DNA of 64,000 bases, taken from contig OZ244799.1 of NCBI GenBank assembly GCA_965219955.1, positions 1,824,001-1,888,000 on the forward strand, given 5' to 3'. A program made the translations under genes and the position numbers. The notes below the pieces were generated by a model. The model made no database searches. It was not told the origin of the DNA and saw nothing but the letters and a program-made list of their open reading frames with translations. The DNA is from a bacterium. GTDB lineage: Bacteria > UBA8248. Shown here piece by piece: positions 19,157 through 39,767 of the stretch (positions are counted from its first letter, which is position 1; the number at the start of each line of letters is the position of its first letter).

Positions 19157-19186
19157 GATGAACGAAAGCGGGATTCGCTCCTCCCT

Positions 19187-19492
19187 TGAGGGGGTTGTTG
19201 AAAAAGCCATGATTTCGTGATTCCACGTATAGAGCTGACCATAAAGGGATGAAACTTTATTTCTCCCTTGCAGAACGCCAATCAACTACTCCCCCCTTGA
19301 GGGGGAGTCGATGAAGCCGAGCGTTTTATGCGAAGGCTGAATCGGTGGGGGGTAAAATGCGTTTTATCGCCACTCCGAATTATACCCCCCACCGAATCGC
19401 TTTCGGGCTTACGCCCTCAGCTCTTCGACTCCCCCTCAAGGGGGGAGTGAAATCTAGCGCGCTCCTTCTGTGGGCTTTTTTAACAGCCCCTC
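19187..19492. repeat. Inverted-repeat-bounded cassette carrying the ~160-bp hairpin element
   Basis: TGAGGGGGTTGTTGAAAAAGCC ... GGCTTTTTAACAGCCCCTCA around 19287-19450. Confidence 0.85.
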
Positions 19493-19574
19493 ATGGAAGG
19501 ATTCCGAACATTTTCGAGGCCTGCCGGAAACTCTATTTGGAATTACGGCCTGCCATGAATGAAGAGGTGGAGAG

Positions 19575-20864
19575 ATGACTTCAAGAAAGGGATCTGATTT
19601 CCTCGAAAGGGCCCGCGCTTCCCTCCCGGGCGGCTGGCTCGGGGACCTGACGCTTCCCGATGAGATGATGCTGATCGCCTCTCGCGGCGAAGGAAGCCGC
19701 CTGTATGACGTGGATGGGCGCGGTTACCTCGATTTCACGATGGGCGGGGGGTCCCTGATTCTGGGACACGCGCATCCGGCCATCCTCGAGGCGGTGCGAA
19801 AGCAGATGGAACTCGGTTCGACTTACTATACGCTGAGTGACCGCTCCATCGAGTTGGCCGAGGAGCTTGTGAAGGCGATTCCCTGCGCGGAACTGGTGCG
19901 TTTCGCCTCAACGGGCGGGGAGGCCACGTTCTACGCGCTGCGGCTGGCGCGCGCCTTCACCGGCAAGGAGAAAATCCTGAAATTCGAAGGGAGCTACATC
20001 GGCCACAGCGACTACGGAATGATGAGCGTCTCCCCGCCGCGCCCGAACCTGTATCCGTCTCATCACCCCGATTCTGCCGGGATTCCCGCAGCGGTTCAGG
20101 AGCTGGTGATCACGGCGCCCTTCAACAACGCCGATATCGCCTGCGGGCTGGTGGAAGAGCACGCCGGGGAGCTTGCCGCCGTCATCGTCGAGCCCGTTCA
20201 GCGCTCCATTCCCCCGGCACCGGGTTTTCTGGAGCAGCTTCGACAGGTGACGACCGAGCGCGGGGTGCTGCTCGTATATGATGAGGTGGTGACCGGGTTC
20301 CGGCTGGCCTACGGAGGGGCGCAGGAGTATTTCGGCGTCGTTCCCGATCTGGCGGCTTACGGCAAAGCCGTCGCGTGCGGATTCCCCTTGTCGGCGGTCG
20401 CGGGACGAGCGGACGTGATGGAGCTGGCGGACCCCGCCCGAAAGGGGGAGCCTGGGTACGTCTACATCAGCGGCACGCTCTCGGGTAACCCGGTGTGCGC
20501 CGCGGCGGCGCTCGCCACCCTGGCAGAATTGTCCAGGCCCGGCGTCTACGACGGCTTACGCGAGATGGGGGAGCGATACCGAAGAGAACTTGCGGCGTTG
20601 TTCGACGAATACGGGGTTCCGGCCCGGGTGCAAGGGCTCGGGCCCTTCTTCCAGGTATTCTTCACGCCGAATCCCGTCACGGACTACCGGAGCCAGACGC
20701 AGGCCGACAGGAATCGTTTCGAATCGTTCGTCCGAAAAATGTTCGCGCAGGGGATTTTCATGAGCCGCAGGGCGAAGAACTATCTTTCCACGGCCCACGG
20801 CGAACCGGACCTGGGCGAGTTCCTGGAAGCGGCGCGAGCCGTATGCGCCGGAGGCCTCGACTGA
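19575..20864 (+). CDS. Class III PLP aminotransferase (GSA-aminomutase-like)
   Basis: YDEVVTGFR, PDLAAYGKAVACG, SGTLSGNP. Confidence 0.9.
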   Translation: MTSRKGSDFLERARASLPGGWLGDLTLPDEMMLIASRGEGSRLYDVDGRGYLDFTMGGGSLILGHAHPAILEAVRKQMELGSTYYTLSDRSIELAEELVKAIPCAELVRFASTGGEATFYALRLARAFTGKEKILKFEGSYIGHSDYGMMSVSPPRPNLYPSHHPDSAGIPAAVQELVITAPFNNADIACGLVEEHAGELAAVIVEPVQRSIPPAPGFLEQLRQVTTERGVLLVYDEVVTGFRLAYGGAQEYFGVVPDLAAYGKAVACGFPLSAVAGRADVMELADPARKGEPGYVYISGTLSGNPVCAAAALATLAELSRPGVYDGLREMGERYRRELAALFDEYGVPARVQGLGPFFQVFFTPNPVTDYRSQTQADRNRFESFVRKMFAQGIFMSRRAKNYLSTAHGEPDLGEFLEAARAVCAGGLD

Positions 20865-20866
20865 TC

Positions 20867-22927
20867 ATGAGCGAGAGCCGGACGATTCCAGAGAGCGCCT
20901 CGGCCGACGCCGTCACGGTCTCGGTCATTCAGGAACTCCTCATCTCCGTGGTCCGCGAGATGCGGGTCACTTTTTCGAGAAGCGCCTTCTCGTCGATCAT
21001 CAACGAAGGACACGATTTTTCCTGCGCCCTTCTCTCGCCGGAAGGAGATCTGGTCGCCCAGTCGGAAGATCATCCCGGCCACATCTTCCCGATCTCCTAC
21101 GCCGCCAGAGCGGTTTTCGAGCGCTACGCGGGCGACGTTCATCCGGGCGACGTTTTTCTCCTGAACGACCCCTATATCTGCGGAACCCACATGAACGACA
21201 TGGCGATGTTCTGCCCCCGGTTTTTTGAGGGCCGCGCGCTCGCCTTTCCGGCGCTCCGCGCGCATTGGGGGGACGTCGGCGGCTCGGTGGCCGGCAGTCT
21301 CTCCGGCGACGCCTCCCACATCTTCATGGAGGGGATGATCGTCCCGCCCATCCGGCTCTACTCCCGGGGCGAGTTGAACCAGGAATGCCTGGAGGTCGTT
21401 CTCCGGAACATGCGGGGCCGCGAAGACAGGCACGGCGACCTGATGGCCATGCTCGGCACCTGCCGGCTGGCCCAGCGGCGCCTGGACGAAATCGAGGAGC
21501 GGTACGGACGCGAAACGCTCCAGGCGGTGAACGACAACCTCATAGCCAGGGCGGAGAAACGGATGCGGGCGGCCATCAGCGCGCTGCCGGACGGAACGTT
21601 CCACTACGAGAACTATATCGACAACAGCGGGACGGGCGCCGAGCCGCTCAGAATTTCACTTCGCCTCCAGATTCAGGAAGACCGAATCCACTGTGATTTC
21701 AGCGGGACTTCCGGGCAGGTGAAAGGGCCTACGAATGCGGGCCCCGCCACGGTGGCCACGTCTTGCTTCATGGTGCTCAAATCGCTCCTGGATCCCGCCC
21801 TGAGCGTGAATGCGGGCTGTTTCCGCCCGCTTACGATGGATGCCCCGGAAGGGTCCATTCTCAATGCGGAATTTCCCGCTCCGTTCGGCGGCGCTTCCGA
21901 CGTGCGGCGCACGATTGAATCGTGCGTCCTGGGCGCGGCGGTCCAGGCGATGCCCGACCTTGCGGCGGGCGACACGAAGGGGGCGGCCAACCATTGCTAC
22001 ATCGCTGGCAGCCAACCCGGCTCCGGCGAAGCCTTCCTCTACTATGAATATCCGGCGGGGGGCACGGGCGCTCTCGCGGGAAGCGACGGGGACCACGCCA
22101 TCCGGACCTACACCGAAGGGGATTTTAACGCCGTCCAGCCGGTGGAGAGCCTGGAGGCCACGCTTCCGGTCCTCGTGGAGGAGAGCGGCCTTCGGGTCGG
22201 CTCCTGCGGCCACGGGGAGCGGCGCGGCGGTCTGGGAATGGAGCGGAGGGTCCGCCTGGAGACAGGCGGCGCGGGTCTCACCGTTTTGACGGACCGCGTG
22301 ATCATTCCTCCCTACGGGGTGGACGGCGGGACCTCGGGTGGAGGAAACCGGTTCACGGTGCAGCGGGATGGTTCGGAGGTCGAGCCTTCCGGCGTCCCAG
22401 GAAAAGCCACGGCGTTCCCGCTTCTCGAAGGCGACGCCGTCGTGCTGCGCTCCGCGGGTGGAGGAGGCTGGGGAGACCCCCTGCTCCGCACGCCCGAGGC
22501 GGTGCTGGCGGACCTCCGGCTGGGATACATCACGGTGGAGGATGCGCGGGATATCTATGGCGTGGTCTTGAAGGACGGAGCGCTCGATGCGGCCGCGACC
22601 TCCGCTGCGCGGGAGCAGCTTAGAAATGGAAGGACATATCTCACCATACTCATTGACGAGGAGGACGCCTGCAGCGGCAGCCGGCGGCTTTGCCCGATGT
22701 CTCCCGAGACGGCTGGCGAAGGCGGATTCTCGGAGGGAATGCTCGTGGAGTACGTTCCGGCGCGGGGCGCGCCGCTCAGAGCCTGGGTGAAGATAACGCC
22801 GGGGCCGGCCAAGGGGGAAACTCCCCTCGGACCCGTCGCGGCGAGCATCCTGAAACTGCGGGATAAAGAGCGAATATGGGTCCGGCGGATCCTGACGCCC
22901 TATTCGCACCCCCCGTTGGCCTCGTGA
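20867..22927 (+). CDS. Hydantoinase/5-oxoprolinase subunit B
   Basis: NDPYICGTHMND, HWGDVGG, GGGGWGDP; real ATG at 20867. Confidence 0.9.
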   Translation: MSESRTIPESASADAVTVSVIQELLISVVREMRVTFSRSAFSSIINEGHDFSCALLSPEGDLVAQSEDHPGHIFPISYAARAVFERYAGDVHPGDVFLLNDPYICGTHMNDMAMFCPRFFEGRALAFPALRAHWGDVGGSVAGSLSGDASHIFMEGMIVPPIRLYSRGELNQECLEVVLRNMRGREDRHGDLMAMLGTCRLAQRRLDEIEERYGRETLQAVNDNLIARAEKRMRAAISALPDGTFHYENYIDNSGTGAEPLRISLRLQIQEDRIHCDFSGTSGQVKGPTNAGPATVATSCFMVLKSLLDPALSVNAGCFRPLTMDAPEGSILNAEFPAPFGGASDVRRTIESCVLGAAVQAMPDLAAGDTKGAANHCYIAGSQPGSGEAFLYYEYPAGGTGALAGSDGDHAIRTYTEGDFNAVQPVESLEATLPVLVEESGLRVGSCGHGERRGGLGMERRVRLETGGAGLTVLTDRVIIPPYGVDGGTSGGGNRFTVQRDGSEVEPSGVPGKATAFPLLEGDAVVLRSAGGGGWGDPLLRTPEAVLADLRLGYITVEDARDIYGVVLKDGALDAAATSAAREQLRNGRTYLTILIDEEDACSGSRRLCPMSPETAGEGGFSEGMLVEYVPARGAPLRAWVKITPGPAKGETPLGPVAASILKLRDKERIWVRRILTPYSHPPLAS

Positions 22928-22969
22928 GCGGGCTGACAACCTTACCTCGTCGCCGGGTCAGAGCGAGGA

Positions 22970-23320
22970 GGGGCTGTTGAAAAAGTCCTGTCCAACCTTC
23001 GAGATTGTTCGCCGTAGGGACAGGCCTCCGTGCCTGTCCTGACGAAGGACAACCACGAAGAGCCGGACAGGCACGGAGGCCTGTCCCTACAAAACCATCA
23101 CGTCTGCGCCGCATGAACCTCCTTGCCACCGATCCCGAAACCGGCTTTCTCAACAATCCCTTCTCGCTCGAAATTGACCACCGCCGGAATGACGCTCAAA
23201 GCTGTATTCGCCCGTAGGGGCGGTTCGCGAACCGCCCCTACAATCCCATCATGTCAAACTCTCACTCACCAGTCGGCTCCATGTACCGAATCAGGAAATC
23301 GGGACTTTCTCAACACCCCC
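22970..23320. repeat. Inverted-repeat-bounded REP cassettes
   Basis: GGGGCTGTTGAAAAAGTCC; inverted GTAGGGACAGGCCTCCGTGCCTGTCC pair; GGCTTTCTCAACAATCCC; GTAGGGGCGGTTCGCGAACCGCCCCTAC; GGGACTTTCTCAACACCCCC. Confidence 0.85.
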
Positions 23321-23420
23321 CCGGATCAGGGTTCCATGACACCCTGAACACAATGAATTACAATTCCTCCACACATCGAACCCAGCCCCAAGAGACTCGA
23401 TTTTTCGGGAGGAACCCAGA

Positions 23421-24809
23421 ATGCCTCAGAAAGCCGATTATCTTCTAAGCGGGGGAACCGTCATCACGGTGGATGAAGAGCGCCGCGTTATCCGGGACGG
23501 CGCCGTAGCCATTCGAGGAGACCGGATCGCCGCCGTCGGGAAGGCGGAGGAGTTGAGCCGGGAATTCACCGCCGGGCGCACGATTGACGCCAAGGGGAAG
23601 CTCATCATGCCCGGTTTCGTGAATTCCCACATGCATTTCTACCACACCATGCACCGGGGGCTGGCGCCGGAAAATCTCGGAGGTATGCTGTGGTCCGACT
23701 ACGTTCACAGATACATCGCCACGGTCCTCACGCCCGAGGATGAGATATACGGCGCGCTGACGATTCTCCTGGAAACCTTGAAGGCGGGCACCACCACCTT
23801 TCTCGAGGCGGGCTCCTACAACCCGGCGGCGGTGATCGAGGGAATCTCGCGCATCGGGATGCGCGGCCTGATGGGCAGGCGGTCCTTCGACGAGGAGCTT
23901 CTGGGCCACGGCATGCTCCTGGAGGATACCGAGACGTGCCTGAAGGAAAATCTCGCCTTCCTGGAGAAGTACAAGGACGGCTACAACGGCGGGTTGATCA
24001 AGGCGTGCGTGGACGTCGTCGGGCTCGGCCGCTGCTCGGACAAGCTGTATATCGATTCGAAAAAGATGGCGGATGATTACGGGACCACCCTGAACCTGCA
24101 CCTTGCGGCCATGTTCGAGGAAGTGACGGCCACGCGCATGCGCTATGGCCACCGTCCCGTCGAGCATATGTATCATCTGGACGTGCTCGGGCCGAATACG
24201 GTTCTCGTTCACATGGTTCACGTGAGCGAGCGGGAAATCGACATGCTGGCCGAAAAAGAGGCGCGGGTGATTCACTGTCCCTCGACGGCGCTCAAGATTT
24301 CCTACGGCAACGCGGCGTTCGGAAGATTCCCGGAGATGTTGGACAAGGGCGTCACCGTCGGAATCGGAAGCGACGCTTCGGACTGCTCGAACTATGCCGA
24401 CATGATTCGCGTCATGTACCTGGCCGGCGTGCTGCCCAAGGATTACCGCTACGACCCCGACGCCGGTTCCGCGGAGACGGCCATCGAGATGGCCACCATC
24501 AACGGAGCGCGCGCCATCGGGATGGACCATGAAATCGGTTCGCTCGAGACCGGCAAAAAGGCGGACGTGATCATCATCACCATGAAGCGGCCCGAGTGGT
24601 ACCCGCTCTACAGCGAGGTGCAGAACCTCGTGTATTCCGCCTCGGGCGATTCGGTGGAGACGGTGTTCATCGACGGGAAGGTCATCATGGAAGACCGCCG
24701 GGTGTTGACGGTGAATGAGGAGGAAATCCTGGAGAAGTGCCAGGAATGCGCGGCGGGAATCCTCAAGAGGAGCGGCGTGGAAGTACCGGGCAAATGGCCT
24801 ATCCTGTAA
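23421..24809 (+). CDS. Metal-dependent amidohydrolase/deaminase (MTA/SAH deaminase, AtzA-like)
   Basis: PGFVNSHMH, HCPSTALK, GIGSD, IGSLETGKKAD. Confidence 0.9.
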   Translation: MPQKADYLLSGGTVITVDEERRVIRDGAVAIRGDRIAAVGKAEELSREFTAGRTIDAKGKLIMPGFVNSHMHFYHTMHRGLAPENLGGMLWSDYVHRYIATVLTPEDEIYGALTILLETLKAGTTTFLEAGSYNPAAVIEGISRIGMRGLMGRRSFDEELLGHGMLLEDTETCLKENLAFLEKYKDGYNGGLIKACVDVVGLGRCSDKLYIDSKKMADDYGTTLNLHLAAMFEEVTATRMRYGHRPVEHMYHLDVLGPNTVLVHMVHVSEREIDMLAEKEARVIHCPSTALKISYGNAAFGRFPEMLDKGVTVGIGSDASDCSNYADMIRVMYLAGVLPKDYRYDPDAGSAETAIEMATINGARAIGMDHEIGSLETGKKADVIIITMKRPEWYPLYSEVQNLVYSASGDSVETVFIDGKVIMEDRRVLTVNEEEILEKCQECAAGILKRSGVEVPGKWPIL

Positions 24810-25130
24810 AAAAACCCGCTCGGTCCGGGGAGAAGCGTCAGGAGCGGATCACGAAACCGGAGGGCGAATGAACAAGATTTACGGCGTGAGATGAAGCGCA
24901 TTTCCACACGAATCGAATTTCCGAAAAATTCGATTAATAATTGTCATGAACCCGGTGTCGGCGCGATAGTATGATTGACTCCGTTTGTCTACGATAACTG
25001 GTTGTTTATAATACCATATTTCTTTTATTTCCTACCCGATGCCCCTTGCGCTTCCGCCGCACATATGCTTGGATAGCTCCCAGTTTGATGCCGCGCGTAT
25101 GCGTTTTGATTACAGACTCAGGGAGGCGGG

Positions 25131-26315
25131 ATGCCGAAGCGAAGCGATCTGAAACTCACGAAGCGCACCGTCGACGCTCTGGAGGTGGATTCCAAAGACG
25201 CCGTCTTCTGGGACCGGGAGCTGGCAGGCTTCGGGGTGCGCGTCCACGCCACCGGCCGGAAGACCTACGTGGTGCAGTCCCGGGGACCCGGAGGGCCGAA
25301 GCGCGTGACGCTCGGCCGTCACGGGGAGCTGTCTGCTGATGAGGCCAGGAAACAGGCCGCCCTCATTATCGACCGCATCAAGCGGGGCGAGGAGCCGGTG
25401 GCCGAACCGCCCGAGGCGGAGACCACCGTGGCCGGCCTTGCAGAGCGCTTCATGCGCACCCACGTGGAGAAACACCTGAAACCCGCCAGCATTGCCGCGT
25501 ACCGCACCGTGCTCGAGGGGCACATCCTGCCGGCCCTGGGCGGGATGGGGCTGGACGAGGTCGGCGGGGCGGAAGTCACGGCGCTCCATCACGGCCTTCG
25601 CGATACGCCGGTCCTGGCGAACCGGGCGGTCCACCTGCTCTCGCGCATGTTCGTACTTGCCGAGGCGTGGGAGCTGGTCCCGCCCGGGCGGAACCCCTGC
25701 CTCGCCGTGCGCCGCTACAGGACGCAGGCGCGCGAGCGGTTCCTGACGCCCGAGGAATACCGGCGCCTGGGCCGTGCGCTCGGGCAAGCCGAGGCGGAGG
25801 GTGGTGTATGGCCGCCCGCCGTCGCGGCCATCCGGCTGCTCGCACTTACCGGATGCCGCAGGGGCGAGATACTGAATCTCGGGTGGGACGACGTGGACCG
25901 CACGTCGGGGGACCTCAGACTTCGGGACGCCAAGGCGGGCCCCTGGATGGTCCCCCTGACGAAGCCCGTGCTCAGGGTGCTCGACGCCATCCCCCGCTCC
26001 GGGGAGAACCCATGGGTGATCGCGGGACAAAGACCCGGAAAACCCCTGACGGGCCTGCACCACTACTGGCGGCCCGTCCGGGAGCGGGCGGGGCTTCATG
26101 ACGTACGCATCCACGACCTCAGACACTCCTACGCATCGAGGGCGCTGGCTCTGGGCGAGAGCCTCTACACGATCGGGAAACTCCTCGGGCACACGAGCGT
26201 GGCGACGAGCGCGCGCTACGCGCACCTGATGCGAGACGCCGAGAGGGAGGCGGCGGTACGGGTGGGCGGGAGCATCGGCGCCCACGTCGCGAACGGGAGG
26301 GTTGAGCACGGATGA
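25131..26315 (+). CDS. Tyrosine integrase with N-terminal arm-binding domain
   Basis: WDRELAGFGVRV; TGCRRGE, HDLRH, LGH, RY. Confidence 0.93.
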   Translation: MPKRSDLKLTKRTVDALEVDSKDAVFWDRELAGFGVRVHATGRKTYVVQSRGPGGPKRVTLGRHGELSADEARKQAALIIDRIKRGEEPVAEPPEAETTVAGLAERFMRTHVEKHLKPASIAAYRTVLEGHILPALGGMGLDEVGGAEVTALHHGLRDTPVLANRAVHLLSRMFVLAEAWELVPPGRNPCLAVRRYRTQARERFLTPEEYRRLGRALGQAEAEGGVWPPAVAAIRLLALTGCRRGEILNLGWDDVDRTSGDLRLRDAKAGPWMVPLTKPVLRVLDAIPRSGENPWVIAGQRPGKPLTGLHHYWRPVRERAGLHDVRIHDLRHSYASRALALGESLYTIGKLLGHTSVATSARYAHLMRDAEREAAVRVGGSIGAHVANGRVEHG

Positions 26316-27481
26316 AGCAGCCCGTCATGAAAACGCTATCAAACCGCGCGGTCGGGAAGATCGCGGTGAAGAAGGACACCGTCTTCTGGGACGGGGAGCT
26401 CACGGGCTTCGGGGTCAGGGTCTATCCCACCGGGAGCAAGGTCTACGTCGCCCAGGCGCGGGGTCCCGAGGGTCCCAAACGCGTGGCCGTGGGCCGCCAC
26501 GGGGTGATCAACGCCGATGAGGCGAGAAAGCGCGCCGCCCATGTCATCGCGCGTATCAAGGCGGGCGAGGAGGCAATCCCCAAGCCCATGAAACCCGTGG
26601 GAGGCCCCACGGTGGCCGAGCTGTGCGCGCGCTACATGGAGGAATACGTCTCGGTGCGGTGCAAGCCGGGCACCGCCGCGCTCTACCGCTCGGTGATCGA
26701 CCGCCACGTCCTGCCCGCCCTGGGCAGGGCGCCGCTGGCCGCGCTCTCGCGCGCGCAGGTGGCGGAATTCCACGAGAGCCTTTATGAGACGCCCGCTGTG
26801 GCGAACATGGCGCTCCGCGTCCTCTCCGCGATGTACGAACTCGCACGGAAGTGGGAACTGGTGCCAGACGGATTATCAAACCCCTGCAAGGCCCTTGTGA
26901 AATATCCCGAGCGGAAGCGCGAGCGGTTCCTGACGGATTCGGAGTTCACCCGCCTGGGAGAGGCGCTCGATGAGGCGGAGGCCCGGGGCGGTGTTTCCGT
27001 GTCTGCTGTGGCCGCTATCCGCCTCCTGGCGCTGACGGGGTGCCGCAGGAGCGAGATACTCAAACTACGCCGGGAGGACGTGGCGCTCGAAGCTGCCGAG
27101 CTCAGGCTGCCCGATTCCAAGACGGGCGCGCGGGCGGTCCCGCTCCCGCCGCAGGCGGTCGAGCTTCTAGTGAATCTCCTGAGCGCCCACGACGGCCCCT
27201 GGGTCATCCCGGGCAGGAAGCCGGGGACGCGCTTGAGGAACATCGACGAGGCTTGGCGAATGATAAGGGAGCGCGCGAGCCTGGAAGGCGTAAGGCTGCA
27301 CGACCTGCGCCACTCCTGGGCCTCGCGGGCGCTTGCGCTCGGCGAGGGGCTGCCCGTCATCGGGAAGCTCCTGGGCCACAGCAGGATGGAGACGACGGCG
27401 CGCTACGCGCACCTCGCGCGCGACTCGGCCCAGGAGGCGGCCGGGCGGGTCGCGGAGAGCATCGCCGAAGACATGCTGTAG
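26312..27481 (+). CDS. Tyrosine integrase with arm-binding domain (second of pair)
   Basis: ATGA overlap; TGCRRSE, DSKTG, HDLRH, LGH, RY. Confidence 0.93.
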   Translation: MKQPVMKTLSNRAVGKIAVKKDTVFWDGELTGFGVRVYPTGSKVYVAQARGPEGPKRVAVGRHGVINADEARKRAAHVIARIKAGEEAIPKPMKPVGGPTVAELCARYMEEYVSVRCKPGTAALYRSVIDRHVLPALGRAPLAALSRAQVAEFHESLYETPAVANMALRVLSAMYELARKWELVPDGLSNPCKALVKYPERKRERFLTDSEFTRLGEALDEAEARGGVSVSAVAAIRLLALTGCRRSEILKLRREDVALEAAELRLPDSKTGARAVPLPPQAVELLVNLLSAHDGPWVIPGRKPGTRLRNIDEAWRMIRERASLEGVRLHDLRHSWASRALALGEGLPVIGKLLGHSRMETTARYAHLARDSAQEAAGRVAESIAEDML

Positions 27482-27854
27482 GGTCGCAGCAGGCGTGCCC
27501 CCCGTGCGCATCCCTTCATCGCTGCTCCTTCCCGGGAGCAGGAAAAACCACAAGAATACACGATAAAGGCATGCAGCTGGTTCCATGGAATATGCACAGG
27601 ATATACGACTCCTGTATAATCGGAACAGACGTTCACCGGGAGGTGAGCGGGTTGCCCGCCTCCCCCGGGGGAAACCGCGGGAGAGTGAAAGGGAGGACCC
27701 GGAAAATGAGGCAGCGCGCGAGGGGAGCCCGCCCAGGCTTGCAGCCGGAGGCCGCATCCCGGACAGTCCGTATTCCGTCATCTCTCACCTGTTTCTACCG
27801 CCCCCGAAGTTATTCTTCTCCACGCAACGAGGTTCCGGTCCCGGAGAGGGCGGC

Positions 27855-28858
27855 ATGAAGATCAAGAAGAATTTTTTGAGCCGTATCGCGCGTCGCAAGG
27901 GTGCCGCACAGGCTGAATCGGAAGAGGGGCACGGGATTCCGCCTCCGGCGGCCATCGAGCCGTTCGTTCCGGATGCGACGGGAATCCCGAAGGACAAGGA
28001 GCTTGGTTCGCACCGGGAACTGGAACTGGTCGCTTCCGGGGAGCCTGCGCCAGCCGGTTCGGCGGACGGCGCGGACGCGGTTGACGGCGGTGATGCTCCC
28101 GCCCCGGAGGCATTGTCCGAACTACCTCGTGGAGCAGCGCCGTATGAGGAATATGGCCTCGAACTCGAGTTGCTGAGCGGCACGGAATCAGAAGCGTCGC
28201 CCGAAGAACCGAATCTGTCTCCGGATGGATCGTCTCTCGGAGAAGAAGCCGCCGCCTCAGCGGCAGCCGGTAGCGTCGTGCAGGCGTCTGCGCCCGAGCC
28301 GGTTCACGAAGAAGACGAGAGCGTCTCGCTCGTGTCCGAAAGCGCCGCGGATGCGGTTGCGCCCGAGCCGGAGGTCATACGGGAGAGCGAACCGGAAGCC
28401 GCCGATGACGCCGTTGCCGGGGATGGGAGAGCCTGAGGGCGCCGGTTTTGCAAGATTCGCCGGATGAAGACGAGCCGCCGTTCGCAGACGAAGAAGCCGG
28501 CCCGGAGACAGCCGGAAGCGCCGCGGAAGCTGCTGCGCCTGAACCGGAACTCTCCAGGGAGAGTGAGCCTGCGGGATATGTCACGGGGGAGGTCGGTGAG
28601 CCCCTCGCGGCTCCGGTGACGCAGGACTCGCCGGATGAGTCCTTCAAACCCGCTCCCGCGGAAAACGGTATTTTCCCCCTCGTGCGGGACGCTCGCGGCG
28701 CGTGGCGGCCCGGCAGGGGATTCAGCGGGGGTGAATTGCGCGAAGCGGGCCTGAGCCCCGCCGATTCCCTGCGCCTGCATATCCGCTTCGACAAGCGCCG
28801 CCCCAACGCGCACTCGGTGAACGTCGCAGCCCTCGAACAGGCGAAGAACGGCGTTTGA
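27855..28858 (+). CDS. Acidic low-complexity protein ending in an eL13 (L13e)-like domain; split by a 1-nt frameshift near 28425
   Basis: ATG 27855 with GGAGAGG upstream; E/A/P-rich repeats; C-terminal GRGFSGGELREAGL...IRFDKRR...HSVNV. Confidence 0.7.
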
Positions 28859-29009
28859 GGGCCATGAACCGGCAGTGAAAGGGAGCAACGATGAGCGAAT
28901 CCGTATTGGAATTCAAGAATTGTCACGGCTCCACCAGGTACGACGAGGAGAACAGGACCCTGCACGGCAAGGTTCTCCCTGCGCAGGGGATTTGATTGCA
29001 TGCGAAGCC

Positions 29010-29085
29010 GAAGAGGACGTGGCGCTCGAAGAAGCGGAACTGAGGCTCGCGAGCTCCAAGACGGGCGCGCGTGTCGTCTCGCTCA
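29010..29085 (+). pseudogene. Integrase fragment
   Basis: EEDVALEEAELRLASSKTGARVVSL matches REDVALEAAELRLPDSKTGARAVPL of 26312-27481. Confidence 0.75.
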
Positions 29086-29397
29086 CGGAGCCGAACGAGA
29101 GCCGTCTGCCGATCACCGGTCCCCCGGGGTGTGTCCGATTCTCCGGGTAAGCGGCGGTCCTGGGCATGGGCTTTCATGGTTCAACTCTACGATTTGCAGT
29201 TTGAATTCGAGTGTAATCAGGAGCTCTGTCAGCCGCAGGAGTCAAGGTTTGCAGCATCGCACGTTCCTGGTGGTGCGGATGCGTTCCTGTGGACATACCG
29301 GGCCGTTGCGACAAAGCGCAGAATGCAGATAACATCGACAATCATCCACTCTGGCCTTGGCCGGTTCGTTTGCGTTTATCGGGAAAGGGGAATTTCG

Positions 29398-31872
29398 ATG
29401 AGGATCGCTTTGGCGGCCGTCGCCGCTTATGCAGTGCTGACGGTGATGATATCCCATGCCGGGCCTCTCGCGCCGGCCCCGCAGGTTATCGCCGAATACG
29501 ACCGCAAGTTCATCGAGCGGTCGGGCGCCCAGACGCTCGAGGAACTGTTGGACACCGGCATCATCCGCTACTTTTTCACCGGGGGACGAGATCTGCTCGT
29601 ACTGGTGAACGGCAGACCCTACGCCACCACCGGCCATAATCTGGACTCCCTGCCGCTCTCGGCCGTGGAGCGCATCGAGGTTCTGAGAGGAGAGAGTCTG
29701 AGCACGCTGGGCGGCCACGCCGCCGTAAACGGCGCGTTCAATATCGTGCTCAGAAAGGACCTGAACGGCTTCGAGGTGCGTACGGTTACGCGGATGCCGA
29801 GCAAGGACGGTGGCGACGGCTGGCAGGGCAGCCTCTTCTGGGGCGGCGCCGTCGGCAAGGGAGGACGCATGACCATCGGCGTGGACATATTGGATCGTCA
29901 GGAAATCCTCGGAAAGGACCGGGAACACAGCCGCTCCGAGTGGGTCAAGGGTGGCAGCTTCAGCCAGGCCAGGAATATCAGCGTCGGCGGCAACACCGTC
30001 TATGTCACCCAGAAAGACGACCAGGGAGAATTTGTCGGCTTGAGGTCGGTACCACTGGGGGACTGCGACCCGTCGCTAGGCTATGCCGGCCCGCTCAGCA
30101 ATCCGCCCGGTATCCGCACGGGCGACGAGGGCTGTGGTTACGCCTATGGAAACATCTGGTGGGACACACCCAGCTATGAGCAGAAGAGCGCCGTCCTGAA
30201 CCTGGAGTATCCGCTCGGAGAGGACGCCAAATTCCATCTGGACGCGAACATCAGTCAGGGCCACGGGGCGTTCCGCTACGCGCCGTCGATCGACGTGTTT
30301 TCCTTTACGCCGAACGAGACATTGCTGGATGAGCTCAAGAGAGCAGCAGGCTCAGACTTCCAGTTGGGAGAAAACGACGAATTCTCCGTGGGGCACCGCT
30401 TCATCGGCCACGGCAACCGTGACTGGGTGACGGACACCGAGGAATACGACGTTTCCGCAAGCGTTGAGGGTCGTCTGGCTGAAGGTCTCGGCTATGATGT
30501 GCGCGTCAGTGCCTACCGGCTGGACCATTCCGTGTCCGGCGACACCTTCGTGCATGCGGGCAGGATCAGGGAAGAGATCGAGAGCGGGGGTTACAACATC
30601 GCGAACCCGTTGGACCCGCGTAATTCCGCGGCGATCGAGAACAGCAGCTTGCAAGAGGAAAAAGATTCCAGTTCGGACTATCTCGGCGCCCGGCTGGCGC
30701 TGGAGGGCATTGGCTTCTCCATCGGCGGGCGCCCGGCGGCATGGACCGCAGGGGTCGAACTGGGGAGTGTGGACGCGCACCGCCTCCTGGTCTTCCGGGA
30801 CAGGGACGGACGAACCCATAAAGTGACCGAGGTGCTCGGTTCCGGCGGCACCAGCTATGCCGGCAAGCGCGACATCGCCGCGGCCTTTTGGGAGATGTCC
30901 CTGCCGCTGGCCGACAATCTGGAAATCAGGGTCGGGGGACGCGGCGATGAATACGACGATATCGGCGGATTGGAATCGTGGCGTTTTGGAGCCGAATACC
31001 GGCTGACCGGCATCGTCACGCTGCGCGGCTCTTGGAGCGCGGGCGACGCGTCGCCCTCCATGAGGCACCTCTACAGCGACGCGGCGCAGACCCACCCTTA
31101 TGTCGTTTGCGACCCCGGGAGCGGACCGCCGCCCCGCACATGCGATAGTCCGAACTACCGGCAGGTGACGCGCGAGACGAGCGGCAACCCGGGTCTCGAC
31201 CCCTCGGGCTCCGAGATGCTCTCTTTGGGCGCCGAGGCCCGCAAAGGGCCGTTCTATCTCGTCGCGGACTGGTACCGGCTCACAACATCCGACCAGGCGG
31301 GGCAGAACAGCGCCACCTGGGCCATGTTGAACCTGCAAGAATGCCAGGGCGGTAACCGAAACGACTGCATCGAGCGCATCGGCGGCGACATCACCATTCA
31401 CCACAGCTTTGCGAACATTGTCGATACCGATATTTCGGGCGTGAATTTCCGGTACGGCGCGCGGACGAGAACGGCGTGGGGCGTTATCGGGATGCGCGGG
31501 TTCTGGCGGCGCGTCATCAGCTCCGAACAGCAAATCGCGGACGAAAAGCAGCGGTATCCCCTCCCCAAGGATGCCGTCCGCGTCGTCGTCTCGGCCGGGC
31601 GCGGCAACCTCACCGCTTTCTGGTCCACGAACTACCGCTCCGAAATCGAGAATCAGTCGGACGAAGGGAGGTTCAAGTCCTGGACCGGCCACGATGTAAC
31701 ACTCGACTGGAAGCGGCCGCTGGGGTGGGAAGACGTGCGGGTGACCGCAGGCGTGTACAACGTCACCGATTCCAAGCTCTCGACGAATACAGCCAACCCC
31801 TCCCTTGTGGACGGACCCACCGCGGCCGGTTGGGGCCGCACCTTCTTCCTCACCCTCAACATGCGGTTCTGA
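29398..31872 (+). CDS. TonB-dependent receptor
   Basis: Signal peptide, plug motif LVLVNG..LPLSAVERIEVLRG, barrel strands, terminal GRTFFLTLNMRF. Confidence 0.88.
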   Translation: MRIALAAVAAYAVLTVMISHAGPLAPAPQVIAEYDRKFIERSGAQTLEELLDTGIIRYFFTGGRDLLVLVNGRPYATTGHNLDSLPLSAVERIEVLRGESLSTLGGHAAVNGAFNIVLRKDLNGFEVRTVTRMPSKDGGDGWQGSLFWGGAVGKGGRMTIGVDILDRQEILGKDREHSRSEWVKGGSFSQARNISVGGNTVYVTQKDDQGEFVGLRSVPLGDCDPSLGYAGPLSNPPGIRTGDEGCGYAYGNIWWDTPSYEQKSAVLNLEYPLGEDAKFHLDANISQGHGAFRYAPSIDVFSFTPNETLLDELKRAAGSDFQLGENDEFSVGHRFIGHGNRDWVTDTEEYDVSASVEGRLAEGLGYDVRVSAYRLDHSVSGDTFVHAGRIREEIESGGYNIANPLDPRNSAAIENSSLQEEKDSSSDYLGARLALEGIGFSIGGRPAAWTAGVELGSVDAHRLLVFRDRDGRTHKVTEVLGSGGTSYAGKRDIAAAFWEMSLPLADNLEIRVGGRGDEYDDIGGLESWRFGAEYRLTGIVTLRGSWSAGDASPSMRHLYSDAAQTHPYVVCDPGSGPPPRTCDSPNYRQVTRETSGNPGLDPSGSEMLSLGAEARKGPFYLVADWYRLTTSDQAGQNSATWAMLNLQECQGGNRNDCIERIGGDITIHHSFANIVDTDISGVNFRYGARTRTAWGVIGMRGFWRRVISSEQQIADEKQRYPLPKDAVRVVVSAGRGNLTAFWSTNYRSEIENQSDEGRFKSWTGHDVTLDWKRPLGWEDVRVTAGVYNVTDSKLSTNTANPSLVDGPTAAGWGRTFFLTLNMRF

Positions 31873-31929
31873 GGGTCCGTTCGAGAATCTTCAGGGACAG
31901 ACGGTGGAGCGGAATCCGGTCGATGATGA

Positions 31930-32345
31930 ATGCGGTTTTCCTGTAACTCCAACCCCCGGTCCGAGCGGGTTTTCTCCATCGCCGGCGTCCGCCGCTCCAT
32001 GGTTCGCGCCGCCTCGTTCGATTTCTCCGCCCCGATGCTCTCCGCCTTGCCCGCTCCTATCGCCTCGAGCGCCGCGACCCGCTCCCCCGTCGCGGCTTCG
32101 AGCCGCTCGCGCAGGGCCTTCGCGTCGTCGGTCACGAGTTCCGCCCGGTCCCGGGCGCGGCTGATCTCGACGTAGAGCGTCTTCTGGTTGGTGAGGTAGG
32201 GGTGGTTCGCTTCCATGGCGGCGATGACGGTATCGACAGTCTGGCCCTGGAAGGCGTGGACGGTCGAGGCCCAGGCGCGGTCGATATGGCGAAGCTGGGG
32301 AACGCCGGCGGTCATGCCGAGCGTGCGCCCGTCCTCGACCCGGTC
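31930..32345 (-). pseudogene. C-terminal helicase remnant of a TrwC/TraI-type conjugative relaxase
   Basis: QLRHIDRAWASTVHAFQGQTVD...LYVEISRARDRAELVTDD (SF1 motifs V/VI); no upstream part present. Confidence 0.8.
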
Positions 32346-32356
32346 CTGGCCGGGAA

Positions 32357-33199
32357 TCACTGCTTGAGATCGAACCGCTCCATCCAGTCCCTGCCCTTGA
32401 ACCAGTAGCGGTGCCGCTTTTCCAGCCAGCCGTTCGCCTTGTTGACCATGATCCAGTTCGAGAAGAAGCGCAGCGCGTCCGGGTCTCCCTTGCGCAGACC
32501 GAACGCCTCGTCGCTTTCGGAGAGGTTCTCCGTGGTCGGCAGGAATATCCGCTCCGGGTGGGCGCCGGCCCATACCACAGGCTGCGGGTAGGAGGAGAGG
32601 ACCGCATGCGCGTTGCCGCTCAGGACTTCGCGCAACGCCCGGGCGTCGTCGTCGAACCTGCGAACCCCCGCCTTGGGGAACAGCCGCTCGACGTCGCTGC
32701 ACGAGGTGGTGCCGCGGCGGCACGAGAAGGTCACCCCTGCGCGGTCGTAGTCGTCCGGCCACTTCATGTCCGCGGCCATCGCCCTGTTGGCCGCGACCCC
32801 CATGCCGGAGTGCGCGTAGGGAACGGTGAAGTCGATGACGAGCATGCGGCGGGGACGCACGCTCATGCCCGCGATGATCACGTCGAACTCGCCGGCGATC
32901 AAGGCGGGGATGAGCCCCTGCCAGGGTGCCGGGACGAACTCGATATCCACGCCCATGTCCCTCGCGACTTTCTTCGCGACGTCGATCTCGAACCCGACCA
33001 GTTCTCCGTTCCTCGTCCGCATCGCCCAGGGCACGAAAATCGACATGCCGGCCCTGAGCACCCCGCGTTTCCTGATCGTCTCGACGACGCTCCCGGACAC
33101 GGGCTGATTCGGTCCGCTCTGCGCGGCCGCCCCGGCCGCGACCGCCACGACGAGCGCGGCGGCCAAGAGCGGTTTCCATGCCGCCCTGGTCCACCCCAT
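32357..33199 (-). CDS. Amino-acid ABC transporter substrate-binding protein (family 3), orphan
   Basis: Signal peptide, GFEIDVAK, WQGLIPALIAGEFDVIIAGMS, IDFTVPY. Confidence 0.9.
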   Translation of the reverse strand: MGWTRAAWKPLLAAALVVAVAAGAAAQSGPNQPVSGSVVETIRKRGVLRAGMSIFVPWAMRTRNGELVGFEIDVAKKVARDMGVDIEFVPAPWQGLIPALIAGEFDVIIAGMSVRPRRMLVIDFTVPYAHSGMGVAANRAMAADMKWPDDYDRAGVTFSCRRGTTSCSDVERLFPKAGVRRFDDDARALREVLSGNAHAVLSSYPQPVVWAGAHPERIFLPTTENLSESDEAFGLRKGDPDALRFFSNWIMVNKANGWLEKRHRYWFKGRDWMERFDLKQ

Positions 33200-33557
33200 C
33201 GCCTTATCCCCTCTCCCGTGGCGCAGGCAGTCTTTTGCTCGTGCCCGCGCACCGTACCCGTTGAAATCCCGCCGATACGAACATATCCGCATGAAAACCG
33301 CAAGAACGACCCGGGCGCCGGTGCGCTCATGGCCTCATCCGTCGCGCTCCGTCACGTTTGGGTTTCCCTGAAAAAAACTTGATATCGATCTCCTGAAGCG
33401 AAAGAATAGAGATATATACGCGGCGCCGCCCTCCGGAGCGGCTCTCCATGTTTTCGGAGAAGCGGGAGCCGGGCGACTCTCAGTTGAAACGCGTGAGGAT
33501 CGGCTCTGCGCGGAGCGAAATCATGCAAACGTCCGTAGCGGGCGGCAGAGCGCAAGG

Positions 33558-34964
33558 ATGGATGAAACCATGAACGCGCCGAGGAAGTTCAGGGACCTGC
33601 CGGGTCCGGTGGGCCTGCCTTTCATCGGAAACCTACACCAGGTCCGTTTCGAGAGGCTCCACCTGGTTCTCGAGGAATGGGCGCTGCGCTACGGGCCCAT
33701 ATACCGGATGGCCATGGGAACTCGTCCCCATGCAGTTGTCTCTGACCCCGGCGCCATCGGGCGGATGCTGGGCCGGCGGCCCCACGGTTTCCGGCGCGCG
33801 AGCCCGCTCGGCCCCGTGGCCGAAGAGATGGGCCTCGCAGGCGTCTTCGCCGCCGAGGGAGAGGACTGGCGCCGCCAGCGGCGCATCGTCTCCTCCGCCC
33901 TGAGCCCCGAGCGGCTGCGGCGTTTTTTCCCCGAACTCGTGAAGAGCGTGGAGCGCCTGAGAGAGCGCTGGGAGGGCCTGGCCGACAAGGGAGAGGCGTT
34001 CGACCCCGCCGATGAGCTGATGCGTTTCACGGTCGAGGTCACCATGCAACTCGCCCTGGGCGTGGACCCCGAGGCGTCGGAAACCACAGGCCGCCTGATC
34101 AGGCGGCATCTCGACAAAATCTTTCCGGTCCTGCACAGGCGCGTGAACATGCCGTATCCCTACTGGCGGTGGTTCAGCCTGCCGTCCGACCGCGCGCTCG
34201 AGGGCGCCCTGGCCGAACTCAGGGCACAGGTCCACGGGATGATCCGCACCGCGAGGGAGCGCATGGACGCGGACCCCGCGAGGCGCGCCTCGCCCGGGAA
34301 TTTTCTGGAAGCCGTACTGGCGGCGTCAGAAGGCGGAGAACCCGGATTCTCCGATGAGGAGATATTCGCCAACGCCGTCACCCTCCTGCTCGCAGGAGAG
34401 GATACGACAGCGAACACGCTCGCCTGGACGCTCCACTACTTCACCGGATATCCGGAACATTTCGCTCGGGCCCGCGAGGAAGTGGACGCGGCGCTCGGTC
34501 CGGCCCTGGCCATCGAGACGCCCGGGCAGACGGAACGCCTCGCTTTTGTCGACGCCTTCTGCGAGGAGGTCATGCGCCTGAGGCCCGTCGCGCCGATCAT
34601 CGCCCTGGAACCCATCGCGGACGAGGATGTGGTCGGTTGCCGGATCCCGGGGGGAACGCCCGTCCTCCTGCTTACGCGACACGCCGCGACGCGCGAAGAA
34701 GGTTCCGCTCGCTTTGAGCCTGAGCGGCGGCTCGCGCCGCAAGAGGGGGCGGTCTTCTTCCCGTTCGGGGGCGGGCCGCGCCTTTGTCCGGGGCGCAATC
34801 TCGCCCTGCTCGAGATGCGCACCGTGCTGGCCATGCTGTGCAGGAACTTCGACGTGGAGCCCGTCCCGCCGACCGAGGAGGTGGGCGAACGCCTCGCCTT
34901 CACCATGGCGCCCGCCAACCTCTCCGTACGCCTGAGGCGCAGGAGCGGCGCCGGTTCTTCCTGA
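33558..34964 (+). CDS. Cytochrome P450
   Basis: AGEDTT I-helix, EVMR (ExxR), FPFGGGPRLCPG haem ligand. Confidence 0.93.
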   Translation: MDETMNAPRKFRDLPGPVGLPFIGNLHQVRFERLHLVLEEWALRYGPIYRMAMGTRPHAVVSDPGAIGRMLGRRPHGFRRASPLGPVAEEMGLAGVFAAEGEDWRRQRRIVSSALSPERLRRFFPELVKSVERLRERWEGLADKGEAFDPADELMRFTVEVTMQLALGVDPEASETTGRLIRRHLDKIFPVLHRRVNMPYPYWRWFSLPSDRALEGALAELRAQVHGMIRTARERMDADPARRASPGNFLEAVLAASEGGEPGFSDEEIFANAVTLLLAGEDTTANTLAWTLHYFTGYPEHFARAREEVDAALGPALAIETPGQTERLAFVDAFCEEVMRLRPVAPIIALEPIADEDVVGCRIPGGTPVLLLTRHAATREEGSARFEPERRLAPQEGAVFFPFGGGPRLCPGRNLALLEMRTVLAMLCRNFDVEPVPPTEEVGERLAFTMAPANLSVRLRRRSGAGSS

Positions 34965-39589: not shown

Positions 39590-39697
39590 TGCTCGGGTCC
39601 TTTATGGATTCATTGGGCGAAGATGAAACGGATTCTGTCGCAACGTGTGAGGGGTTTACGTCTGGAGCCGGGGTCTTCGGCAGGAGTGCGATCTAAT

Positions 39698-39767
39698 CTT
39701 GAGGCTTGAGGCTTGAGGCTTGAGGCTTGAGGCTTGAGGCTTGAGGCTTGAGGCTTGAGGCTTGAGG
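39698..39767. repeat. Perfect tandem repeat (CTTGAGG)10
   Basis: Ten exact 7-mers counted. Confidence 0.97.

Follow-up and report, generated by a model that had tools for sequence, protein, structure and literature searches.

DruH of Druantia III is described in a 2026 preprint as consisting of a globular domain, six immunoglobulin (Ig)-like subdomains and a C-terminal domain, with single-stranded DNA (ssDNA) bound between Ig5 and the C-terminal domain (10.64898/2026.05.12.722862). According to the main text of a 2025 preprint (PMC12458937), the YprA helicases include a distinct 'Druantia Type III-like' branch, the members of which mostly lack nuclease domains. The locus described here lies in a 64,000 nucleotide (nt) stretch of bacterial DNA (assembly GCA_965219955.1, contig OZ244799.1, forward strand, 1,824,001 to 1,888,000), referred to below as the window and used for all coordinates unless another locus is named. 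At 27855-28858, an initial annotation made from the letters alone had placed a single protein in which a domain like ribosomal protein eL13 is fused to a long acidic region. The gene belongs to a family of short acidic proteins, and the same type of domain also ends a group of much longer bacterial proteins (the long form) that are encoded next to DruE-type helicases. Our overall reading, held with moderate confidence, is that the window carries a broken duplicate of the short family, and that the eL13-like module is centred on a partner of DruE, where it would bind nucleic acid or the expression machinery.

Like DruH of Druantia III, the long form is encoded immediately 5' of a DruE-type helicase gene (in 76 of the 80 loci) and combines predicted tandem Ig-like domains with a small C-terminal domain. 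It differs in having no match to any PADLOC DruH model and in ending with a module of the eL13, uS17, uS5 or omega type. The short family departs further from Druantia III, having neither the Ig array nor DruE. With eL13 itself there is a homologous core of ~50-60 amino acids (aa), carrying the R-x-G-[KR]-G-F-S-x-x-E-L and D-x-R-R...N-V signatures, and the folds superpose, whereas the domain described here is the C-terminal end of bacterial proteins of 287-970 aa encoded outside ribosomal gene clusters. Read from sequence, the short family and its long-form kin are a variant of a Druantia III-like system.

Automatic annotation already tags these proteins with PF01294. A literature search in which supplements were not covered found no paper on a bacterial eL13-like domain or on ribosomal-protein modules on a DruE partner. 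The terms 'L13', 'ribosomal' and 'DruH' have no occurrences in the main text of PMC12458937, the supplements of which may list such domains.

Homology of the C-terminal domain to eL13

The peptide on which the eL13 proposal was based is encoded at 28670-28855 and followed by a stop codon (28856-28858), and the proposal was borne out by profile and structure searches. These last 62 aa scored 27.0 bits (E = 4.9e-6) against Pfam Ribosomal_L13e (PF01294), above the cut-off of 24.9, while the whole 136 aa open reading frame (ORF) that contains them scored 24.8 bits, just below it. A six-frame search of the genome with the same model gave 30.8 and 29.7 bits for two paralogues (above the cut-off) and 23.5 for the window copy (below). 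With the archaeal L13e model of NCBIfam (PRK12277), the scores were 41.1 and 43.8 bits (best E value 1.5e-11). The matched span is small, covering positions 62-99 of 180 in the Pfam model and 26-73 of 83 in the archaeal one.

When a profile of the three copies present in the genome was compared with PDB sequences, 60 of the 61 matches at E ≤ 0.001 were named eL13 or L13. They come from microsporidia, trypanosomatids, yeast, mammals and the archaeon Pyrobaculum (E 2.6e-8 to 1e-3), and a further eL13 entry stood in the same listing at E 0.0014. The remaining match was DotG/IcmE (E 3e-8), the sum of many weak repeat matches; in the Legionella DotG/IcmE repeats (7muc_AG, 9ngw_A), G-F-S-x-x-E-L-x-x-A-G recurs about 17 times and produces a misleadingly low summed E-value.

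An alignment of 63 sequences (the three copies and 60 further proteins) bears out the expected conservation of the signature residues. D44, R47 and N54 are invariant, G18, G20, F21, S22, E25 and R46 are at least 90% conserved, and the window domain keeps all nine. The AlphaFold2 model of the domain (predicted local distance difference test, pLDDT, 87.8) has two short strands and three helices. The top 50 PDB matches returned for it by Foldseek were all ribosome or pre-ribosome entries, with template modelling (TM) scores (query) of 0.65-0.82, root-mean-square deviations of 2.0-3.3 and identities of 26-36%; those chains that were also found by the PDB profile search are named eL13 there. By sequence profiles and predicted fold, the last ~65 aa are a true homologue of the eL13 core, with a likeness far beyond chance.

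The nearest relatives of non-bacterial appearance are stand-alone proteins of 55-143 aa, which are 35-49% identical to the domain, and the eight tested all match the archaeal L13e model (E 1e-15 to 1e-22). In P0107 (143 aa), a small eL13-type protein is joined to a helix-hairpin-helix region that resembles those of RadA and of the L32e of halophiles (NCBIfam E 6e-8 and weaker). Bacterial ribosomes are not known to contain eL13. The domain studied here is not a free-standing protein of the large ribosomal subunit, and the genes beside it are those of integrases, of the TRAP transporter, of a hydrolase or of DruE. In bacteria it is not a ribosomal protein but a module that can be transferred from one C-terminus to another, and a bacterial match to Pfam 'Ribosomal_L13e' does not imply a ribosomal protein.

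The gene copy in the window

The feature at 27855-28858 is 1004 nt long, which is not a multiple of three. The frame that opens with the ATG at 27855 ends at a TGA (28434-28436) after 193 aa and meets four more stops downstream, and the eL13-like part is in a different frame, open from ~28403. The parts of the gene are as follows.

27855-28436, + strand: front piece of the broken gene, 193 aa; basic N-terminus, acidic repeats and one EEYGLELELL motif; aligns with the N-terminal parts of intact members
28336-28393, + strand: internal repeat unit; second copy at 28512-28569, after the frameshift
28426: site of the 1 nt deletion, the sole uncompensated gap against intact relatives L010, L011 and L012
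28448-28858, + strand: back piece, ORF of 136 aa with a TTG start; acidic repeats and eL13-like domain; PF01294 24.8 bits, PRK12277 E 1e-10
28661-28855, + strand: eL13-like domain, 65 aa, isoelectric point 11.2; found with Pfam, PDB chains, AlphaFold2 and Foldseek

In DNA alignments with the three intact relatives, which are from other species, the window copy showed in each case (3/3) a single uncompensated gap, a 1 nt deletion at ~28426 that falls within a GGG/GAG run. The 58 nt internal repeat (copies 76% identical) has one copy on each side of the break, and the two copies give the same peptide unit only if the frame switches between them. A single ORF over 27855-28858 was rejected because of the two frames, the internal stops and the deletion relative to intact relatives. 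The positions around the break (28404-28447) are crossed by contigs of all four public runs examined, which represent at most three samples from three studies and include one RNA library, and in none of them is a letter inserted or deleted. The break is therefore real in population DNA and not an error of the record, and assembly error was rejected as the cause of the frameshift in the window copy.

The window domain carries two further changes. Proline replaces the arginine found in 18 of 18 intact members (DKRRR to DKRRP), and a glycine stands at a nearly invariant arginine position. The ratio of non-synonymous to synonymous substitution rates (dN/dS) between the window domain and its three nearest relatives is 0.51-0.81, against 0.22-0.48 among those three, these being pairwise values from small counts and without a formal test. 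The window copy is a frameshift-broken and probably decaying duplicate, which we read as a pseudogene or remnant that most likely yields no full-length protein.

It is unlikely, in our judgement, that the split copy is in use, whether by production of the 136 aa ORF alone or by ribosomes slipping back one base near 28426. The break recurs in the contigs of all four runs, one of them an RNA library, but that library may also contain DNA. A protein of 136 aa, 98% identical to the back piece, has been recorded from other contigs (P0001), but the TTG start has, by eye, no evident ribosome-binding site. Residues D44, R47 and N54, invariant in the wider alignment, are kept, but an arginine invariant within the family has become proline and dN/dS is raised. 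No X-XXY-YYZ slippery heptamer was seen by eye at 28417-28436 and no Rfam family was found in 24000-34000, and all 18 aligned relatives read in one frame, which bears on a programmed -1 frameshift. A second copy in the genome is moreover broken elsewhere and in the opposite direction, and has an intact counterpart. As a probable decaying duplicate, the window feature is an ordinary pseudogene of an unusual family, and in annotation it is better named a pseudogene.

Copies and distribution of the short family

The host genome is a single contig of 4.28 Mb (94% complete) with three copies of the gene, all of which match PF01294, two of them above the cut-off. The copy at 2.098 Mb (L001) is intact and specifies 416 aa, made up of a basic N-terminus (net charge +5.5), an acidic region of 337 residues (-85; aspartate plus glutamate 0.28) with two EEYGLDLE[PL]L motifs, and the basic domain (+8.9). 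At 1.944 Mb lies a second broken copy (L002), in which a G5 run has shifted the frame at a different site from the window copy and in the opposite direction, and for which the database contains an intact counterpart of 373 aa (P0006). Likeness among the three copies is confined to 27787-29012 of the window, that is, the gene and the first codons of hicB.

Intact members are 287-541 aa long and share one plan, in which a basic N-terminus followed by a PPP motif leads into acidic repeats with EEYGLxLELL-type motifs and then into a basic C-terminal domain of 60-65 aa. Across these members the N-terminus is conserved and the acidic repeat region is fast-evolving. The initial annotation had described the same succession in the window, and its components are present there: the basic N-terminal peptide starts at 27855, and the stretch that follows is acidic and rich in alanine and proline (aspartate plus glutamate 0.22 and alanine plus proline 0.29 in the front piece). 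The fusion of these parts to the domain stands for the intact members, but in the window copy it is broken by the frameshift.

Within the genus, which is one of sponge-associated bacteria, the short form occurs in 17 of 22 other species, with open frames of 219-550 aa; one genome (G007) has the long form only, and four other species gave no match. The family was absent from 28 genomes of 14 other genera of the phylum and from 15 genomes of other phyla. Its presence in one of 15 genera of the phylum fits the horizontal acquisition and re-use of a module suggested earlier, but a donor is not supported by the weak domain tree. In that tree (126 rows, 65 columns, leaving out rows that match fewer than 40 model positions and small proteins in which the domain starts after residue 40, which are long-form fragments), the short family forms one clade with an SH-aLRT value of 97, but only 8 of 123 branches are well supported, and donor and root are unsupported.

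The intact copy lies at a conserved chromosomal site between TRAP transporter and hydrolase genes (L004, the 20 kb around L001), one of 11 loci that share the flanking genes for the TRAP transporter DctPQM, a molybdopterin oxidoreductase, an alpha/beta hydrolase and IlvD. The median dN/dS of the domain over 91 pairs of 14 intact copies is 0.21, which shows, at the level of sequence, purifying selection on the domain of intact copies.

The long form and its DruE-type helicase

A profile search of 1.84 billion representative proteins returned 573 at E ≤ 0.001, many of them 700-970 aa in length with the domain at the very end. Pfam searches of ten long-form proteins found PF01294 as the sole family in eight and no family in two. 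The long-form protein P0020 retrieved 265 relatives, and a scan of one genome per prokaryote species gave 93 stretches, from which 80 loci were retained, all in metagenome-assembled genomes (MAGs) of 13 named phyla plus four unnamed records. Their labels include Poribacteria, Poriferihabitaceae, Latescibacterota, Dehalococcoidia/SAR202, Binatia, Dadabacteria, Gemmatimonadota, Acidobacteriota, Rhodothermota, Spirochaetota, Nitrospinota, and Alpha- and Gammaproteobacteria. We take these labels to be typical of sponge symbiont consortia, a putative habitat of the records. The domain tree, although weak, does not follow taxonomy (for example, Longimicrobiales and Acidobacteriota form a pair with an SH-aLRT of 99), which fits transfer of the domain between phyla. 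With its sponge-type labels, the spread over unrelated phyla would make a clear case of genes shared throughout a habitat.

In 76 of the 80 loci, a same-strand gene for a helicase of ~1400 aa lies directly downstream of the long form, most pairs overlapping by 4-11 bases, and three of the four loci without it are contig ends or short contigs. The helicase domains DEAD, Helicase_C and MrfA Zn-binding (MZB) were found in all four helicases tested, with no nuclease domain in Pfam, and both of two tested matched PADLOC DruE models (E 1e-149 to 1e-155). Without a Pfam nuclease domain, the DruE proteins found here may belong to the 'Druantia Type III-like' branch of the YprA helicases.

The long form is a protein of roughly 800 aa. 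In the predicted structure of P0020 (pLDDT 78.6), acidic disorder is followed by an all-beta stretch (residues 177-607), and the eL13-like domain closes the chain. The beta region matches the tandem Ig-like arrays of S-layer proteins, Sidekick and contactins, with no DruH structure among the matches; in the ESM Atlas, the best score for the long-form Ig region was 0.82, below a meaningful level. The short family has no Ig-like region. As part of the overall reading, and judged from sequence, the long form and DruE are reasonably likely to form an anti-phage system of two genes that resembles Druantia III and occurs in MAGs across many phyla. How Druantia senses infection is only beginning to be understood, and the module marks a previously undescribed partner of DruE. 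eL13 counts as a hallmark of the ribosomes of archaea and eukaryotes; here its core is a mobile module of bacterial proteins, seen in at least 13 named phyla.

Modules exchanged at the C-terminus

Of the 80 loci, 63 have a long form that terminates in the eL13 domain, which lies at most 10 aa from the C-terminus in 62 of them and within 10-20 aa in all. In a few lineages the same slot holds other modules. In a Dehalococcoidia MAG (L057:7305-10274, + strand), residues 895-962 are a complete ribosomal protein S17 domain (uS17, PF00366, E 2.7e-27); residues 692-812 of P0248 (816 aa) carry both domains of ribosomal protein S5 (uS5; PF00333, PF03719); and at L070:9309-9908 the slot is occupied by an RNA polymerase omega/Rpb6 domain (PF01192, E 1e-8). 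This last locus is from a genome of the same genus as the window (G009; L070 and L115:1-1700), where the omega module is followed by out-of-frame remains of the second half of eL13, indicating that omega replaced eL13 in place. In P0104 (297 aa), a NusB domain (residues 122-212; E 1e-18 to Thermotoga NusB, PDB) stands between an Ig-like domain and the eL13 end. A slot that accepts eL13, uS17, uS5 or omega, with NusB ahead of eL13 in one protein, offers a direct experimental handle.

Eleven of the 17 loci without an eL13 domain were scanned with Pfam. In L109, the protein is fused to an SNF2 helicase, and Pfam gave only SNF2 and a weak NusG match. The C-terminal pieces of L037, L046, L049, L060, L063, L074 and L082 gave nothing at E < 0.03, and that of L083, which has its end in common with L082, gave no Pfam family. 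Three of these ends were also searched against PDB sequences, with nothing at E ≤ 0.1 for L037 and L074 and one chain at E 0.094 for L060. Among other proteins, a PIN domain was seen in P0236 and helix-turn-helix domains at the N-terminus of P0159.

Proposed function and alternative explanations

In their native settings, eL13, uS17, uS5 and NusB bind RNA, and omega binds RNA polymerase. Because of these native partners, and because the position of the slot matches the ssDNA-binding end of DruH, the eL13-like module would bind nucleic acid (RNA or ssDNA) or dock onto the expression machinery. Nucleic-acid binding, taken by itself and argued by analogy, remains a tentative step, to which we give rather less than even weight. 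In the long form, the module would fill the role of the C-terminal ssDNA-binding domain of DruH, and the short family would have kept the module without the Ig array and DruE. The acidic region (-85) lies beside two basic ends, which suggests that it may mask or tune the module or mimic nucleic acid, much as the initial annotation had imagined for its acidic tail. A complex prediction of L001 residues 1-125 with the protein's own domain (350-416) reached a score of 0.00, the mark being 0.32; made without controls, it counts neither way.

Several observations weigh against this reading. The Pfam scores are near the cut-off, and those for PRK12277 fall short of its equivalog cut-off (96 bits). 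Three long-form and two short-form proteins matched none of the PADLOC models, that of DruH among them, at E ≤ 0.01, and four further long-form proteins gave no PADLOC match at E ≤ 10 except one to Csx19 (E 0.048); the long form looks like a DruH analogue, and is DruH-like by architecture and gene position only. Homology between the short and long N-termini was not found, a hidden Markov model of 14 short-form N-termini giving a best E value of 0.044 among 132 long-form sequences, in a match that was not N-terminal. Omega binds protein and not nucleic acid, which fits docking or a decoy better than plain nucleic-acid binding. As for the window copy, the break is stable in several samples and the stretch is present in an RNA library, and a product from the 136 aa ORF is conceivable.

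The distribution of DruE in the genus also counts on this side. No DruE was found in the host genome (94% complete) with the DruE of L035 as the query, and in the genus the helicase is present only in G007 (long form with eL13) and G009 (long form with omega), both of which lack the short form, while 17 species and the genome of the window have the short form and no DruE. Since DruE is missing from the genomes with the short form, the short family cannot act via DruE. As the species are kin, the complementary pattern may reflect a single split in the genus.

A broader scenario, argued by analogy, is doubtful in our view. Bacteria of the sponge habitat would exchange the Druantia-like pair, the slot modules of its sensor protein, copied from gene-expression proteins, would be tethers to, or integrated decoys of, the transcription-translation machinery, and in the genus of the window the eL13 module would have passed to an acidic disordered protein acting by itself as a regulator, a decoy or a mimic aimed at the host. 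The principle is that of the integrated decoys of plant NLR proteins, in that one slot of an immune-type protein holds unrelated domains of housekeeping proteins; it differs in that a bait role of the modules is hypothetical here, and in that eL13 has no bacterial original to mimic.

A related idea is that the short family is a host-directed, 'eukaryote-like' protein that is released into sponge cells and acts there, its eL13 end rivalling host eL13 or binding host rRNA and its acidic motifs engaging host proteins. The eukaryote-like proteins of sponge symbionts (ankyrin, TPR, LRR) offer a parallel, in that a domain of non-bacterial type is spread across many phyla with labels that we take to be sponge-typical, and the stretch is present in sponge metagenome runs of at least two studies. 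The eL13 module is, however, not a repeat-type protein-binding domain, and its context points to phage defence and not to host contact. The domain is of an archaeal/eukaryotic kind, but its closest kin are in cytoplasmic defence-type operons with DruE; protein length varies from 287 to 541 aa through the repeat region and short motifs recur, but no signal peptide or known secretion signal was seen (by eye, with no predictor) and no secretion genes are nearby. In listings and abstracts of sponge papers, eL13-like proteins are not named. We regard host-directed action as quite improbable.

More improbable still is the proposal closest to the initial annotation, namely that an intact fusion protein is the cargo of an integrative element and acts on ribosomes or on the RNA of the element. 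Two integrase genes do lie directly upstream and an integrase fragment downstream, but integrases occur beside only one of the 16 loci examined, that of the window copy, and there the gene is frameshifted. The copies arose by segmental duplication and have brought the start of hicB with them, but the intact one occupies a chromosomal locus that is conserved. A search of the window for tRNA genes gave none, and the direct repeats found in 24500-33500 do not flank the gene, being confined to the integrase genes and fragment or to the broken gene itself. Nor was a mobile source found: tblastn with the domain matched none of 50,697 phage records and none of 72,556 plasmid records, and none of 255 pattern-matching stretches from a scan of IMG/VR was a relative. 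The originally proposed link to an integrative element is limited to the window copy. Least probable, and already contradicted, is a chance or convergent G-F-S-x-x-E-L-x-x-A-G motif, such as recurs in the DotG/IcmE repeats (E 3e-8 from summed weak matches), since the likeness spans ~50-60 residues including the I-x-V-D-x-R-R...H..N-V part, an independent fold prediction fits eL13, and 573 proteins match the profile at E ≤ 0.001.

Neighbourhood of the window copy

The integrase pair reported directly upstream of the gene is present, and the bacterial nature of the host is likewise supported by the adjoining gene for a TonB-dependent receptor. The features surrounding the broken gene are listed below.

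25131-26315, + strand: tyrosine integrase 1, 394 aa; Pfam Phage_integrase E 1.3e-17, Arm-DNA-bind_3 E 4.8e-12; 53% identical to integrase 2
26312-27481, + strand: tyrosine integrase 2, 389 aa; Pfam Phage_integrase E 3.2e-22
27593-27620, + strand: promoter-like site, TGCACA-16-TATAAT, 10/12 positions, a consensus match only; one found against 0.2 expected in shuffles
28891-28977, + strand: hicB antitoxin fragment, first ~29 codons; tblastn with the HicB of the L001 locus, 66% identity over residues 1-29
29013-29087, + strand: fragment of a third integrase gene, 79% identical to integrase 2 at 27074-27148

A matching hicB fragment is also found 3' of the second broken copy (L005). These remnants mark the window copy as a duplicated segment that came to lie within an array of integrase genes. 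A hicA-hicB pair lies 215-250 bp downstream of the intact copy (L004:9713-10382, - strand, equivalent to L001:571-1240). Among the 16 loci, hicA is present in four and an intact hicB in six, and the duplicated copies keep only the first ~30-50 codons of hicB. With these counts, HicAB was set aside as a functional partner and is read as a neighbouring insertion.

Upstream of the integrases (17105-24809) are genes for hydantoinase A and B, a class-III aminotransferase and an amidohydrolase, and downstream are those for the TonB-dependent receptor (29071-31872), a family-3 solute-binding protein and a cytochrome P450. Overlapping the end of the receptor gene region is a minus-strand open frame (31653-33194), of which 31900-32250 resembles, by eye, the C-terminal helicase part of a conjugative relaxase (TraA/MobA type); a Pfam search of 31891-32604 gave nothing. 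The stretch itself was recovered from runs labelled sponge metagenome, of at least two studies, in pieces of 770-1185 nt that differ by 0-5 letters. Outside the shared genes, 22999-23060 and 39687-39757 of the window are 95-100% identical to L004:4406-4466 and L005:15490-15560, and these short stretches may be small dispersed repeats.

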